Positions 39,141 to 43,987 of a stretch of 64,000 bases of DNA are shown here, piece after piece. The stretch's first letter is position 1. Every line of letters starts with the position of its first letter. Origin of the DNA: Desulfobacterales bacterium (GTDB lineage Bacteria > Desulfobacterota > Desulfobacteria > Desulfobacterales > JAHDSC01); contig JAFGES010000095.1 of NCBI GenBank assembly GCA_016931455.1, positions 12,487 to 76,486 on the forward strand, in the 5' to 3' direction. A program made the translations under genes and the position numbers. The notes beneath the pieces are model-generated. The model was not told where the DNA came from. It searched no databases and saw only the letters and a program-made list of their open reading frames with translations.

Positions 39141-40613
39141 TTATTGGATAAGTTCGAGTGCTCTTTGGATAGCCATCGCTTTATTGATCGTTTCGATCCG
39201 CTCTTTTTCAGGATCGGAATCAGAGACGATTCCGGCCCCCGCACGAACGGTCATCTGTCCCTTTTCAATGCAAGCGGTCCGGATTGTGATGGCCATATCC
39301 ATATTTCCGTCAAACGAGACATAGCCGACAGCTCCACCATAAGGACCTCGGGGTTGTTTTTCAATTTCAGCGATAATTTCCATGGCTCTTATTTTGGGAG
39401 CTCCTGATAAAGTCCCGGCCGGAAATGTAGCTGCAAGCAAATCCCAAGCATTGTAATCGGATTTTAGATCACAGCTGATATTTGAAACCAGATGCATAAC
39501 ATGCGAGTAACGTTCGACGATCATCAAGTCCGTCACCTGTACCGTGCCGACTGTTGCCACACGTCCCAAGTCGTTGCGTCCTAAATCGACGAGCATGAGA
39601 TGTTCGGCACGTTCTTTCTCATCGCTTAGTAGTTCATCGGCAAGCATCCGGTCTTCCTGTTCGTCTTTTCCTCTGGGACGGGTGCCGGCGATTGGGCGGA
39701 GTGTCGCAATACCGTTTTCCAATCTTACCATTGTTTCCGGAGATGAACCTACAAGCGCAACGTCATCCAGTTGCAGGAAATAAAGATAAGGAGAGGGGTT
39801 AATGTATCGTTGTGCCCGGTAGAGTTGCAATAAATCAGGAGTAGGACTGTATACAAAGGCTTGAGAAATAACGGCTTGGATGATTTCTCCGGCCTGGATA
39901 TATTCTTTTACCTTTTTAACACTGTTTCTAAAACTGTCGGCTGAAACGGTTGTTTGCATTTTAAAATCCGTTTGAGGCTCATAAATTTCAGCTACCGGTC
40001 TGTATTGACTTATTGTTTGAAGTAGAGATTCAATTCGGCTTGTTGCTGAATGGTAAACCCGAGCGGTGTCGTCCTTTCCTTCAGGAAAACTGATGACGAC
40101 GATTTGCAATGTGTGCCGGATATTGTCAAAGATCAGTACTTCATCCGGTATGATAAAATGCGCGAGGGGTTTATCTTTCGGCAACTGATTGGGAATCGAT
40201 TCAAAAAAGGAAACCATTTCATAGGTTAAATAACCGATCATACCTCCGCAAAATCTCGGTAGCCCAGGTATTTGGGCGAGATGATATTGATCCATAAAAG
40301 TCCTCAGGACAGCAAGTGGGTCACTATTATGGGGAATTTGCCTACATCCGCTTTTTTCTTGAAATTCGACGAAATCCGTAAATATGCGAATATGAGAGCG
40401 TGCCGAACTCCCCAGGAAACTGTATCTTCCCCATCTTTCGCCCCCTTCGACGCTTTCGAAGAGAAAGATGGGACCCTGATTTTTGTATAGCTTTTTCAAA
40501 AGTGAAACCGGTGTTTCCATGTCGGCTAAAATTTCGACACCAATAGGGATCACGTTGTGGTCCTGCGCTAATCGGTGAAATTCATCTTTGTCCGGAAATT
40601 GTTTTATATGCAT
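39141..40613 (-). CDS. trpE: Anthranilate synthase component I
   Basis: Chorismate-binding family (LESVEGGE, GSSPE, AGTLSGAPKIRAMEII, GGAVGY). Confidence 0.95.
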   Translation of the reverse strand: MHIKQFPDKDEFHRLAQDHNVIPIGVEILADMETPVSLLKKLYKNQGPIFLFESVEGGERWGRYSFLGSSARSHIRIFTDFVEFQEKSGCRQIPHNSDPLAVLRTFMDQYHLAQIPGLPRFCGGMIGYLTYEMVSFFESIPNQLPKDKPLAHFIIPDEVLIFDNIRHTLQIVVISFPEGKDDTARVYHSATSRIESLLQTISQYRPVAEIYEPQTDFKMQTTVSADSFRNSVKKVKEYIQAGEIIQAVISQAFVYSPTPDLLQLYRAQRYINPSPYLYFLQLDDVALVGSSPETMVRLENGIATLRPIAGTRPRGKDEQEDRMLADELLSDEKERAEHLMLVDLGRNDLGRVATVGTVQVTDLMIVERYSHVMHLVSNISCDLKSDYNAWDLLAATFPAGTLSGAPKIRAMEIIAEIEKQPRGPYGGAVGYVSFDGNMDMAITIRTACIEKGQMTVRAGAGIVSDSDPEKERIETINKAMAIQRALELIQ

Positions 40614-40648
40614 AAATATTCCTTTTTCATGATGGATGATTTTTCATA

Positions 40649-40683
40649 CAAAAAAAGGCCGTGGAAATTTCCACGGCCTTTTT
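40649..40683 (-). terminator. Rho-independent terminator 2 in the trpE leader region
   Basis: On the minus-strand RNA, GGCCGUGG pairs with CCACGGCC (plus coordinates 40657-40664 and 40671-40678). The stem is extended by A/U pairs and followed by U7. Confidence 0.6.
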
Positions 40684-40691
40684 CAATTTCG

Positions 40692-40729
40692 AAATAAAAA
40701 AGACCGCGGGCTTTGGCTTGCCCGCGGTC
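40692..40729 (-). terminator. Rho-independent terminator 1 (trp attenuator)
   Basis: On the minus-strand RNA, GACCGCGGGC pairs with GCCCGCGGUC (plus coordinates 40720-40729 and 40702-40711) across an 8-nt loop. UUUUUUAUUU follows. Lies 27 nt after the leader stop. Confidence 0.65.
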
Positions 40730-40756
40730 TTTAGATTATCGTTTTTAAGTTATATT

Positions 40757-40858
40757 TCAGAATACTGCGATCGCGTCGGCAAACCTTTGGCTATAGGCCT
40801 GCCACCACCACTTATTACGGTCACATGTTTTTAAAATTGTTTGCTTTGTTTTTTTCAT
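40757..40858 (-). CDS. trp operon leader peptide (33 aa) with three consecutive Trp codons
   Basis: MKKTKQTILKTCDRNKWWWQAYSQRFADAIAVF. TGG TGG TGG sits at 40802-40810. Located between ydbL and trpE and followed by two terminators. No clear SD. Confidence 0.7.
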   Translation of the reverse strand: MKKTKQTILKTCDRNKWWWQAYSQRFADAIAVF

Positions 40859-40888
40859 ATGGATTTTATAAAAATAAATTTTTAATTG

Positions 40889-40917
40889 ATTATAAATTAC
40901 ATGGTTTTCATTGTACT
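40889..40917 (-). promoter_or_regulatory. Candidate promoter for the trp leader
   Basis: Perfect TATAAT on the minus strand (40889-40894), 30 nt upstream of the leader ATG. The -35 is weak (AGTACA, 17-nt spacing). Confidence 0.3.
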
Positions 40918-40919
40918 TG

Positions 40920-41297
40920 TCAATATTTTTTTTGGTACCATTTTCCATTTGCATCCTGAAGCCATTCACCGGATTCGGCCTTTTCTTCAATTTGTGCCGC
41001 GCGATGAATCTCGACAACCTCAATTTTTGTTCCTTGCTGCTGTGCAATCGCCGAATAAATGGTTCTACGATCCTGGTTTTCAGCTTTCACCACATCTTCT
41101 TTGTCTTTATCGGCAATAAATTCTAAATATCCTTTATTATTTTCTCCAATAATGCCATTTTTTTTAAGAGCTTTAATAATCGGTAGGCGAGCCTTCATGC
41201 GAGATTTTATACTTGTCGTATCCGCGGCAACAGGCATTGAAAATATTACTGAAAGAAAAATCGAAATGCATAGCATGAAGCGTTTATTTTTCATCAT
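40920..41297 (-). CDS. YdbL-like periplasmic protein (DUF1318 family)
   Basis: Signal peptide. Resembles E. coli YdbL (GIIGENNKGYLE..., ENQDRRTIYSAIAQQQG, GEWLQDANGKWYQK). Confidence 0.6.
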   Translation of the reverse strand: MMKNKRFMLCISIFLSVIFSMPVAADTTSIKSRMKARLPIIKALKKNGIIGENNKGYLEFIADKDKEDVVKAENQDRRTIYSAIAQQQGTKIEVVEIHRAAQIEEKAESGEWLQDANGKWYQKKY

Positions 41298-41338: not shown

Positions 41339-41548
41339 TTAAGGCTTTGTTTGAATATTTTCTTCTTCCTCATCAATATCACTAAAAAAATCGTCCAACG
41401 CTTTTTCCACGCGAACGTTTACATCAATGGTGATATGAATCGGTTTTATCTCCACCGGCGCAACTTCCACCGCATGGTGGGTATTGCAGGACGGGGTCAG
41501 CAAACAAAATAAAACTACCCAGAAAAGTATTATATTTTTAAATATCAT
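41339..41548 (-). CDS. YnbE-like small lipoprotein
   Basis: Lipobox LLTPSC. VEVAPVEIKPIHITIDVNVRVE resembles the E. coli YnbE core. Confidence 0.6.
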   Translation of the reverse strand: MIFKNIILFWVVLFCLLTPSCNTHHAVEVAPVEIKPIHITIDVNVRVEKALDDFFSDIDEEEENIQTKP

Positions 41549-41560
41549 TTTACCCCTTTT

Positions 41561-43987
41561 TTATTGAATCTTTTGATAAATTTCTTTATACTGTAAAATT
41601 TCGTTGAGCGGAAGCTTGAAATTTACATCCAGACTGATTCCCTGGAAAGTTGAGCCCTTGGCACCGCTTTCCACTCTAACAAATCCACCAACCTCTTTTT
41701 TATAGATAAACGGTAATGGCTTTGAGGGCTTGCCGTCAAGTTGCAGTCGTAAAATTAAATCTTTATCTTTCGTCAATACTCTAACTTTTGCCCAGTTATA
41801 ATGAAAATCCTTTAATGCCTCACGAGCTAAATCAATTTGCATATATTGAGGTGTTTGTTTAGCGATCCCGGCGTTTGGCATCTGCGTGCCGGGTAGATGA
41901 ATAGTTCCGCCGCTGCCGGGTGTGGAAAACAAAAAACCGTCTTCAAAGATTAATTTATTATTTTTTAATCTCAGCGGTATCCTGCCGTTAACCGTACCTT
42001 CACCTTCCGCCTCTGCGATACCGAATTGTTGCAGGACACTAGCAAGGTTTAGCCGATCGCAATAGAGAACTACATGGTAATCTTCAACTGCCGGTGAAAT
42101 TCGTAGTGCCTGGCCAAACACTTTGCCGCCGCACCAGTCAAAGCTGCTTTTTTCTATAAATAAGCTTCGGTCCGGCTCTACCTGAAATTCAATCCGGCCG
42201 CCATCGGAATTCAGCTTGCTAAATGAAGCTGTTTTAAAACTGAATTGCTGCACGGGTGCACGACATATTTGAAATAGATCAGGAATTAAAATAGAAAGAT
42301 TTATTCCTTCAACTGAGATTTCTTTTTTTTTATTCCATATGCTTACATCTTTAAGCTCGGAATTTAGATAAAATTTTATACCTTCTTTACGGTCGATAGT
42401 CAAACTTGCGTCTGTTTTAAATCCGCCGGCAAATTTAAAACCCATTGCTATTGGTAAAAATTTTCCCAAATCAATAATCGTATCTGTAGGATTATATAAA
42501 AGTTCAAACCGGATATCGGTTTGCGGGTTATGGAATGACGATATGTCGAATTTTCCCTGAAGATTCGGTATAAGCTCCGAAATAAGTTTGTTTTTAAGAT
42601 CGGCTTTAAAAATAAAACCTGATCCTTTTTGTTGAACGAACCCTTGGAGAGATCCTATATCCATATTCTGCCATTTGATCTCCTTAACAGCGATCTTGCC
42701 TTCGCGGCCTAAATCCTGAGAAGGCCATGTTAATGGAATATTTAGACTGATGCCGGTTAAAGTCGTTTTTGATTCCGAATCTGTAATCGTAGCGTCTTCT
42801 AAATTTGAGACTCCGGTCAAGCGAAAGATACCGCTTTTATTGTTTTCTGATTTTACATTATTCATTTTTTCCGGCTCATCGAATTCAACCTTGCCTTTAA
42901 AGGATATAAATGGTGAATATATCACTGCAGATTGTATCTTCATTTTTAAAGCTGGAATAATAAGGTCATATTCAACGTTTCCCTTTGACCCCCTCCCATT
43001 TCCGGAAATATGAATTCGTGGTGTCTTTGACGCAATATCTAAATCACGAATTTTAAATTTTAAATTTTTCGCCATAGACCCGAAACGGTTATCATTCGTG
43101 TGGGTAAGCTTGAATTCCCATTTGCCTTCTTTCGATAATTTCGATGTGAAAATTGCATGTATAGGGATAGACTCTATTATTTCCAAAGGATTTGAGGGGT
43201 TGTTATTTGATTTTTTTAAATCAATAATAAAATTTAAGGCACTTTCGATGGTGTTCTGTGAAATTTTAAAAGAAGATTTTATTTGAGAAAACTTTATAGA
43301 TATAGGGGAATCAATGGTTATCGGCTCTAAGGCCAAGGAAACAGTATGTTTAGTTAAATCAATTTCGGCGGTGCAAAGAATTTTCCGGCCTCGTAAATAT
43401 AAATGCAAGGCGCAGTGTAATAGATCCCCTTTAGTATTTTTAGTATTGATTTTAAACTCAAAGGGAAACAGGAAGTAATTGCCTTCCCAGTTCAAAGCCA
43501 GAAGGGCATTGAGGATTTGTAAATTTCCAATCGGAATTTTTGGGGAAAGATTTGCTGACGAAAATGGTTTTTGAGAATCAGATTGAAAATGCTTTAAAAA
43601 TCGGTTCAACTCAAGCCCGTGAATTAACAATTTCCCATTGATAATTTCAATGAAAATTTCGATGGCGTTTAATTCTATTCTTTTTATATACCTTTCAAAA
43701 AAAAGAGCTTTGGGTGAATAGTCAATCGCTAAAGATCCGATTGTTAATGCTTTTTGCTTACTATCACCGATAGCTATCGAACCAAAATCCGCACCGGTTA
43801 GCCCGATGCGACGAACATCGCATTTGAAATTCTCAAATCCAAATTTTTCAGTAATTTTAGGCAGAAACCGAGATTCTATATAATTTGGAAGGTAAAAAAT
43901 AAAACCGACCACAACACAAAAGAGAATAATAATGAGAAGTATAAATGTTAGAAGAAGAGCAAAATTGAATTTACGTTTTAGCGGCAT
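41561..43987 (-). CDS. YdbH-like AsmA-family intermembrane transport protein
   Basis: 808 aa with one N-terminal transmembrane anchor and a long beta-rich body. Operon context with ynbE-like and ydbL-like genes mirrors E. coli ydbH-ynbE-ydbL. Confidence 0.55.
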   Translation of the reverse strand: MPLKRKFNFALLLTFILLIIILFCVVVGFIFYLPNYIESRFLPKITEKFGFENFKCDVRRIGLTGADFGSIAIGDSKQKALTIGSLAIDYSPKALFFERYIKRIELNAIEIFIEIINGKLLIHGLELNRFLKHFQSDSQKPFSSANLSPKIPIGNLQILNALLALNWEGNYFLFPFEFKINTKNTKGDLLHCALHLYLRGRKILCTAEIDLTKHTVSLALEPITIDSPISIKFSQIKSSFKISQNTIESALNFIIDLKKSNNNPSNPLEIIESIPIHAIFTSKLSKEGKWEFKLTHTNDNRFGSMAKNLKFKIRDLDIASKTPRIHISGNGRGSKGNVEYDLIIPALKMKIQSAVIYSPFISFKGKVEFDEPEKMNNVKSENNKSGIFRLTGVSNLEDATITDSESKTTLTGISLNIPLTWPSQDLGREGKIAVKEIKWQNMDIGSLQGFVQQKGSGFIFKADLKNKLISELIPNLQGKFDISSFHNPQTDIRFELLYNPTDTIIDLGKFLPIAMGFKFAGGFKTDASLTIDRKEGIKFYLNSELKDVSIWNKKKEISVEGINLSILIPDLFQICRAPVQQFSFKTASFSKLNSDGGRIEFQVEPDRSLFIEKSSFDWCGGKVFGQALRISPAVEDYHVVLYCDRLNLASVLQQFGIAEAEGEGTVNGRIPLRLKNNKLIFEDGFLFSTPGSGGTIHLPGTQMPNAGIAKQTPQYMQIDLAREALKDFHYNWAKVRVLTKDKDLILRLQLDGKPSKPLPFIYKKEVGGFVRVESGAKGSTFQGISLDVNFKLPLNEILQYKEIYQKIQ

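Follow-up and report, generated by a model that had tools for sequence, protein, structure and literature searches.

How can one amino-acid sensor govern two transcription terminators that stand one behind the other? The question is raised by the region ahead of trpE on the minus strand of a 64,000-nucleotide stretch of contig JAFGES010000095.1 from a Desulfobacterales bacterium (GCA_016931455.1), the whole of which was analysed and is called the window here. A short leader open reading frame (ORF) with consecutive Trp codons is followed in this region by two hairpins with U tracts. The original prediction, made from the sequence alone, had taken the region for a trp attenuator with a WWW leader and tandem terminators, and anatomy, folding and the conservation of this layout at more than 100 related loci all support this. 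The overlap between the antiterminator and terminator 1 (T1) had been recognized correctly; the hairpin that would hold back the antiterminator strand had been missed, and terminator 2 (T2) had been left unexplained. It is proposed here that six successive RNA segments, numbered 1 to 6, exchange partners in such a way that one stalled ribosome may disable both terminators. From sequence, folding and comparative evidence, a basic ribosome-mediated trp attenuator is very probable and the relay that would couple T2 to the same stall is reasonably likely; for the attenuator together with the six-segment relay, a probability of roughly 0.65 is given.

The leader ORF and its three UGG codons are present as had been claimed (Table 1), and so is the 96-aa ORF (40757-41047) said to enclose the leader, which appears in the mechanical ORF list with a TTG start. 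The sequence TGGTGGTGG occurs once in 64 kb against 0.23 copies expected, and at least one copy was obtained in 19/100 shuffles; its rarity alone is weak evidence and not significant, the real evidence being conservation. Both hairpins, each with its U tract, were likewise found ahead of trpE, which does begin with an ATG at 40613. T1 has a GC-rich core (GACCGCGGGC/GCCCGCGGUC) situated 27 nt past the leader stop; A-U pairs lengthen its stem to 13 bp, and UUUUUUAUUU follows. It folds at -25.5 kcal/mol (z = -7.4) and is also called by a terminator scan, while T2 folds at -24.3 kcal/mol (z = -8.4). The two have a common core, CCGYGG/CCRCGG, and constitute the sole tandem terminator pair in the window. 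Both are thus predicted intrinsic terminators lying between the leader ORF and trpE. An origin of the hairpin core as an uptake-sequence-like or repetitive extragenic palindromic (REP)-like repeat was rejected, as GCCGTG has 15 copies in 64 kb where 16.5 are expected and no other tandem pair exists.

Ahead of T1, the 1:2 hairpin begins in the last Trp codon, has -12.8 kcal/mol when folded alone and is part of the minimum free energy (MFE) structure of the whole leader. When no ribosome is stalled, this hairpin would sequester the antiterminator strand, acting as an anti-antiterminator. Its pairing in 26 relatives of the Desulfobacterales type amounts to 83.8%, compared with no more than 47% in slid registers, and its modest covariation signal was reached by 3/500 shuffles. 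The antiterminator pairing that had been predicted between segments 2 and 3 exists as well: GGUUUGCC-GA-CGCG (40785-40772) and CGCG-GGCAAGCC (40726-40715) form 12 bp, rather than 9 bp, with a 2-nt bulge. With segment 1 masked and segment 4 not yet made, this helix is the MFE structure of 40789->40712 at -18.5 kcal/mol, and in the family its register is 76.9% paired against at most 46% when slid. Exclusion of segment 1 from folding, to imitate its coverage by a stalled ribosome, is called the stall mask here; under it, segment 3 of transcripts cut before segment 4 paired upstream in nearly all sequences. In the folding model, antiterminator and T1 would exclude each other on the RNA that a stalled ribosome leaves free.

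Starting from these observed elements, their complementarity, energies and conservation, the following course of events may be proposed. When Trp is plentiful, the ribosome would pass UGG UGG UGG, segment 1 would pair with segment 2, and 3:4 would form T1, at which most polymerases would stop; those that leak through would meet 5:6, which is T2, and with it a second chance of stopping. When charged tRNA-Trp is scarce, the ribosome would stall on the Trp codons and cover segment 1, whereupon the 2:3 antiterminator could form and block T1. Segment 4, freed in this way, would pair with segment 5 once the latter has been transcribed, T2 would be blocked too, and transcription would proceed into trpE. 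One stall would be relayed to two terminators, so that termination is multiplied in the presence of Trp and expression is uncapped in its absence. Three things are inferred here: leader translation governs termination, each hairpin terminates, and 4:5 forms fast enough to have an effect.

The comparison of trpE upstream regions suggested along with the original prediction revealed Trp-codon mini-ORFs and hairpins in relatives. The window, whose G+C content is 41%, encodes a TrpE that also occurs, with 100% identity, in a Desulfobacterales metagenome-assembled genome (MAG). When species-representative genomes were scanned with TrpE, Desulfobacterales MAGs were obtained in which this protein is 64-72% identical; in four of them, a WW(W)-Q leader precedes two hairpins, and in another, L003, a WWWW leader precedes one terminator only, in which the GCCGUG..CACGGC stem is retained (2860-2990). 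Two Lentisphaerae loci, L005 and L009, likewise combine a WW/WWW leader with a single terminator. Metagenomes were scanned with a DNA pattern made up of UGGUGGCA and the T2 core, which demands only two UGG codons. This yielded 102 loci with 84 unique sequences; about 96 of the 102 have a leader ORF that is complete, starts with ATG and contains W3-W4. Counting all equivalent leader ORFs, in which W2-W4 is followed by Q, H, N or Y, these were found in about 96/102 metagenome loci and in all tandem genome loci. Four genome loci also match the pattern, and of the resulting 106 loci, 80 have a TrpE match of 41-72% identity that starts downstream at 6-190 nt (median 20 nt); the rest are mostly truncated contigs. 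A large group at about 51% TrpE identity corresponds to Syntrophales.

To escape the bias of the pattern, ten further loci were fetched through TrpE homologues alone, including Desulfonema limicola, Eth-SRB1, two HSG MAGs and five Syntrophales-type contigs. All of these TrpE-fetched loci with enough upstream DNA (10/10) have a Trp leader and both hairpins. Among all Desulfobacterales and Syntrophales loci found through TrpE alone, 14/15 have a W2-4 leader with both hairpins, and the GGCCGUG..CACGGCC core of T2, or a near variant, is present in 14/14 tandem relatives found in this manner. The closest locus, L164, with 90% TrpE identity, is cut 44 nt upstream of trpE and was therefore outside the leader comparison. 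By these comparisons the arrangement is conserved upstream of trp genes in related genomes. The Syntrophales-type loci fetched through TrpE (L170-L174) have WWWW followed by N (UGGUGGAAC) and were missed by the pattern requiring UGGUGGCA, indicating that the family is larger than 102 loci. In L087, L097 and L101, a WWW-H leader with T1 and T2 stands ahead of trpD, encoding anthranilate phosphoribosyltransferase, with trpD about 70 nt past T2 in L087; the element may thus control another first gene in some lineages with split trp operons.

Covariation and slide tests were carried out on a MAFFT alignment of 89 sequences. T1 and T2 together are 92% paired, 11 of their 26 pairs are changed on both sides, and their covariation score was reached by 0/500 shuffles. 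In T1 alone, 8/13 pairs have changes on both sides, and a tract of about six U follows it in essentially all aligned sequences; T2 alone is 95.1% paired.

The proposed link between the two terminators is the bridging helix 4:5, made up of segment 4 (the T1 3' arm with its U tract) and segment 5 (the T2 5' arm with the A tract before it). Segment 4 is complementary to segment 5 because T1 and T2 have the same core. In the window, this helix has 15 bp, a 9-nt loop and -20.0 kcal/mol (z = -5.2). It is unbroken in 84/84 unique sequences, with 8-18 bp and a mean of 12.2 bp, compared with means of 11.6 bp for 3:4 and 13.0 bp for 5:6. On the 89-sequence alignment, it is 87.6% paired against at most 57.7% in slid registers, and neither its pairing nor its covariation score was reached by any of the shuffles (0/500). 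The base pair at columns 41-78, which lies outside the search pattern, is U-A in 69 sequences, C-G in 10, U.G in 8 and another combination in 2, and all ten C of segment 4 face a G of segment 5. As a control for the explanation that two copies of one hairpin would pair with each other in any case, the mirror pairing 3:6 was examined. It has a mean of only 7.0 bp, is shorter than 4:5 in 82/84 sequences and was matched or beaten by 111/500 shuffles, with two positions that are 57% and 36% mismatched. The view of 4:5 as a mere by-product of two copied hairpins is therefore partly rejected, as 3:6 is not maintained, with a caveat from wobble pairing that is taken up below.

Some variants were observed in segment 5 and its partner. 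In Desulfonema limicola CP061799 (L165:695-773; the trpE start, near 2,360,827, is just downstream of the element) and in L168:694-774, CCCCGG stands in place of CCACGG in the T2 3' arm, giving a U.C mismatch, and the unchanged segment 5 (GGCCGUGG) still pairs with segment 4, which fits segment 5 as the more constrained arm. The segment-5 core variants GGUCGUGG and AGCCGUG were found in three loci.

Further pairings extend the chain upstream. In the Syntrophales group, CCGCCGC, located where the leader ends (..FVRR*), is complementary to the Trp codons UGGUGG, and the adjacent UCCGC is complementary to GUGGA in the 5' arm of T1. In the group to which the window belongs, the complementary sequences are UGCC-NN-CGG in segment 2 and CCG-YG-GGCA in T1. 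From the UGG codons the chain runs through segment 2, the T1 5' arm, the T1 3' arm and the T2 5' arm to the T2 3' arm. Each arm thus has two partners in a chain anchored by the UGG codons, which may explain why the stems are nearly frozen while loops, spacers and peptides are free to vary.

Folding under the stall mask gave different structures at different transcript lengths. In the window, a transcript ending past the T1 stem has T1 as its MFE structure. One that ends just past segment 5 (40789->40671) adopts 2:3 + 4:5 at -38.5 kcal/mol in an unconstrained MFE prediction, and the full leader adopts T1 + T2 at -57.2 kcal/mol. Across the family, 2:3 + 4:5 is the MFE structure under the stall mask in 62/84 sequences, whereas with no ribosome T1 forms in 69/84 and 4:5 in only 7/84. 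In these models, the position of the ribosome would flip the preferred fold at the transcript length relevant to T2.

Several observations weigh against this interpretation. Under the stall mask, 2:3 + 4:5 is not the MFE structure in 21/84 relatives. At both decision points, the predicted energies favour the terminators, with T1 at -25.5 against -18.5 kcal/mol for 2:3, and as long as segment 5 has not been made, segment 4 could conceivably displace segment 2. Read-through would consequently need the alternative helix to form first, by kinetic trapping. The trp attenuator of Escherichia coli likewise has a terminator whose stability exceeds that of its antiterminator, so that control there is kinetic. 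The comparative evidence is also qualified in several ways. The aligned sequences are related, so that counts such as 0/500 shuffles are not probabilities. The segment-5 core was fixed by the search pattern in 84/89 of the aligned sequences, and variation there is one-sided by design. The asymmetry between 4:5 and 3:6 is explained in part by G.U wobble geometry, since a G in segment 5 accepts either U or C in segment 4, whereas a C in segment 6 rejects an A in segment 3. No covariation of 2:3 was detected in the relatives, where the helix is backed by complementarity and conservation. The single-terminator versions in L003 and in the two Lentisphaerae loci suggest that the second terminator was an add-on or has been lost.

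The window itself adds two more such points. No Shine-Dalgarno sequence was found upstream of its leader ORF, while relatives carry GGAG or AAGG. Its leader stop (UGA 40759-40757) lies 13 nt past segment 2, whereas in relatives the stop is inside segment 2 or directly after it. A ribosome at this UGA, with the usual footprint, would cover only the last few bases of region 2. In the switch as first described, the covering of the antiterminator strand when translation reaches the stop is therefore only partly right for the window, where the 1:2 hairpin must do most of the sequestering.

Among the other explanations, a classical attenuator acting at T1 only, with T2 outside ribosome control, deserves the most attention, unlikely as it is. 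T2 would then be a constant partial terminator, a hairpin for RNA stability or processing where the trpE mRNA has its 5' end, or a bidirectional terminator, and 4:5 would be a by-product. That the common core makes cross-complementarity automatic speaks for this explanation, and the mirror pairing 3:6 still has 79% paired cells. The A and U tracts that flank both hairpins also give a terminator score on the plus strand, where no gene was found for a bidirectional terminator to serve. The single-terminator loci and the thermodynamic preference for T1 and T2 at full length agree with it as well. Nevertheless, an unregulated strong T2 (-24.3 kcal/mol, U7) located about 20-40 nt before trpE would cap expression during starvation, and a weaker promoter would do the same job as a constant T2. 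Nor would a by-product be expected to stay unbroken in all 84 sequences and to exceed 3:6 in 82 of them, to exchange C-G for U-A outside the common core, or to appear with 2:3 in the MFE structure of 62/84 sequences once the stall mask is applied. These observations favour the relay over control at T1 only.

It is quite improbable that T2 is an independent checkpoint, read by a trans-acting protein or small RNA (sRNA) that recognizes the GGCCGUG hairpin in response to another signal. The T2 stem is indeed unusually conserved for a plain terminator while TrpE diverges down to 41% identity, and it stays constant where loop and spacer vary. The stems are, however, already explained by the pairing chain that leads from UGG through a CCGCC-type segment 2, GCCGUGG, CCACGGC and GGCCGUG to CACGGCC. 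Moreover, there is no conserved motif in the T1-T2 spacer (4-28 nt) or in the T2 loop, and neither TRAP-like (G/U)AG repeats, a T-box core nor an Rfam hit at gathering threshold was found. Hardly any weight is given to the absence of an attenuator altogether, with the hairpins ending a ydbH-ynbE-ydbL unit and the WWW ORF being a chance frame. No terminator separates ydbL from the leader, TGGTGGTGG is statistically unremarkable on its own, and the leader of the window is without a Shine-Dalgarno sequence, all as this explanation would have it. In the relatives, though, leader and hairpins always travel with trpE (or trpD) and not with ydbL, the upstream genes being different, and the Trp-run ORF recurs in about 96/102 pattern loci although the pattern demanded only two UGG codons; trpE, besides, would be left without a promoter of its own. 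The possibility that the hairpins serve only the upstream operon, which had been named as a refuting case for the original prediction, is contradicted by these comparative data.

Table 1. Coordinates of the trp leader elements, the regulated operon and the upstream features in the window.
Feature	Coordinates	Strand	Remarks
-35 TTGACA	40923-40918	minus	overlaps ydbL stop codon TGA 40922-40920
Candidate -10 TAATTT	40899-40894	minus	18 nt past -35; assignment uncertain
Leader ORF (trpL-like)	40858->40757	minus	33 codons + stop; translates to MKKTKQTILKTCDRNKWWWQAYSQRFADAIAVF*
Trp sensor codons UGG UGG UGG	40810-40802	minus	read from sequence
1:2 hairpin (putative anti-antiterminator)	40803-40778	minus	GGCAGGCCU 40803-40795 + AGGUUUGCC 40786-40778, 9 bp
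Region 2 (putative antiterminator 5' strand)	40786-40772	minus	pairs with 40726-40715
Predicted terminator 1 (3:4), stem	40732-40699	minus	13 bp, AAAGACCGCGGGC / GCCCGCGGUCUUU; U tract to 40692
Bridging helix 4:5	40709-40671	minus	CCGCGGUCUUUUUUA 40709-40695 + UGAAAAAGGCCGUGG 40685-40671
Predicted terminator 2 (5:6)	40685-40650	minus	15-bp stem GAAAAAGGCCGUGGA / UCCACGGCCUUUUUU (40684-40651), U7 40656-40650
Regulated operon trpE, trpG, trpD, trpC, trpF, trpB, trpA	40613-33940	minus	
trpE	40613-39141	minus	ATG at 40613, translation
trpG, trpD, trpC, trpF		minus	Pfam matches
trpB	35966-34755	minus	403 aa; position and size only
trpA	34746-33940	minus	268 aa; position and size only
DUF1318/YdbL protein ORF (ydbL)	40920-41297	minus	

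The interval between T2 and trpE is short, with a median of 20 nt in relatives and 37 nt in the window, and its conserved parts are the U tract and the Shine-Dalgarno sequence only. Given this short and otherwise unconserved gap, the idea that trpE has a promoter of its own downstream of T2 was rejected. As there is no room for a promoter, T2 must be read through for trpE to be expressed. A 6-codon mini-ORF (AUG AAA AAU CAU CCA UCA UGA) was observed on the minus strand at 40626-40646, past the U tract of T2 and before the ribosome-binding site of trpE; L164 has an equivalent, ATGAAAAATCATTCATCATAA, which may be meaningless at so short an evolutionary distance. In L083, L099, L149 and L159, T2 and the trpE start are 340-370 nt apart rather than about 20-40 nt, and the insert has a GC-rich patch and no obvious gene. 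On the plus strand (40654-40729), the A tracts upstream let both hairpins score as antisense tandem terminators, and no plus-strand gene ending at these hairpins was found.

Upstream of the leader, TTGAC occurs at a distance of 84-125 nt from the Trp codons in 82/82 relatives with enough upstream DNA, irrespective of the upstream gene, indicating a promoter that belongs to the leader itself. The neighbouring genes upstream in relatives encode EamA, methyltransferase, periplasmic binding protein or DAHP synthase, often on the opposite strand. The window and its closest look-alikes, L131 and L140, have TTGACA-N17-GTAATTTA in common, and the Syntrophales group has TTGACA-N17 followed by TATAAG-like hexamers preceded by TGn. 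For the window, TAATTT is more likely than TATAAT to be the -10 element. The TATAAT noted by the original prediction is present (40894-40889); a -10 role for it is disfavoured, as it is 23 nt from TTGACA, which is too far, and does not occur in L131 or L140. AGTACA, located 17 nt upstream of TATAAT, could be a weak -35 element and keeps some chance for TATAAT as the -10. A simple promoter scan called no site in the TTGACA/TAATTT region.

The claim that no terminator separates ydbL from the leader was borne out, as none was found there. Upstream of ydbL, the minus strand (41339-43987) encodes an 808-aa YdbH-like protein and a 69-aa ORF without Pfam hit. The ydbH-ynbE-ydbL order, known from Enterobacteria, is thus found here in a Desulfobacterales MAG, with no terminator before the trp leader promoter.

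With regard to known systems, no Rfam 15 family reached its gathering score anywhere in the 64-kb window. At permissive thresholds, RF00513 (Trp_leader) scored 22.1 bits at 40694-40787, its gathering score being 41, and both hairpins were matched as generic terminators by many unrelated sRNA models, placing the element outside any curated family. Control by a T-box or by TRAP was rejected: no T-box core is present, and the 317-nt leader region has one (G/U)AG triplet, where about 9-11 (G/U)AG repeats spaced by 2-3 nt were taken as the criterion for TRAP. The element resembles the trp attenuators of E. coli and Salmonella in having a short ORF with consecutive Trp codons and the order 1:2, 2:3, 3:4 upstream of trpE. 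It differs from the E. coli attenuator in several respects: there is no detectable homology, and three or four Trp codons stand in place of two. The 2:3 loop has 45 nt, the leader stop of the window lies past segment 2, and a second terminator and 4:5 are added. The host, moreover, belongs to Desulfobacterales (Desulfobacterota/Thermodesulfobacteriota) and not to Gammaproteobacteria.

A closer parallel is offered by the his attenuator of Salmonella and E. coli, for which Johnston et al. in 1980 reportedly described a six-segment model with A:B, C:D and E:F against B:C and D:E. There, as proposed here, six alternating segments relay the position of the ribosome through a middle hairpin to a distal terminator, and the window has all five helices of such a scheme, with 4:5 maintained throughout the family. 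Unlike the his system, where only E:F terminates and C:D is a plain relay, the last hairpin is not the only candidate terminator here, the middle hairpin having its own U tract and a call by the terminator scan. The amino acid is also different, and the two are unrelated in sequence. In tandem riboswitches and T-boxes, serial terminators sharpen or deepen the response with one sensor for each terminator; here, by contrast, the Trp codons are proposed as a single sensor whose signal would reach the second terminator through an RNA relay.

The trp attenuators of Corynebacterium and Streptomyces have triple UGG leaders and GC-rich terminators with poly-U, and their gGCC-rGCy-GGCC triples are short motifs that stay conserved across long distances and engage in several alternative helices (PMC1262725). 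A motif conserved through several helices is found here too, namely CCGYGG/CCRCGG; the actinobacterial attenuators differ in having a single terminator, another phylum and another motif (PMC1262725). Conservation of a motif through several alternative helices has already been noted for other attenuators (PMC1262725). In some Gammaproteobacteria, the rimP-leader has two tandem terminators, a potential antiterminator and related or inverse stem motifs; according to the part of the source considered here, it differs in having no leader peptide or amino-acid sensor and in its genes, and no bridging helix is mentioned in that part (PMC2965389). The survey of Lopatovskaya et al. (2010), which is cited by PMC4833913 for 'chains of RNA helices' in attenuators, lies outside the literature searched. 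In the literature that was searched, no description of a Desulfobacterota trp leader, or of a relay from one sensor to two terminators, was found, and an earlier description is possible.

The finding extends leader-peptide attenuation of Trp synthesis to Desulfobacterota, for which there is neither an Rfam model nor a description in the literature searched. Having more than 100 members, the family is large enough for a covariance model and for better annotation of sediment and anaerobic-digester metagenomes. The chain in which every arm has two partners also accounts for the frozen terminator stems, which normally drift freely. Slightly better than even odds are given to a 'double-lock' in which one stall disables two terminators as the standard trp control in at least two orders, Desulfobacterales and Syntrophales. 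If the relay is true, one sensor would drive two serial terminators by RNA strand exchange alone, which would widen the dynamic range and be relevant to the design of synthetic attenuators and riboregulators. The leak in the presence of Trp would then be the product of two termination failures, while induction would still be complete.

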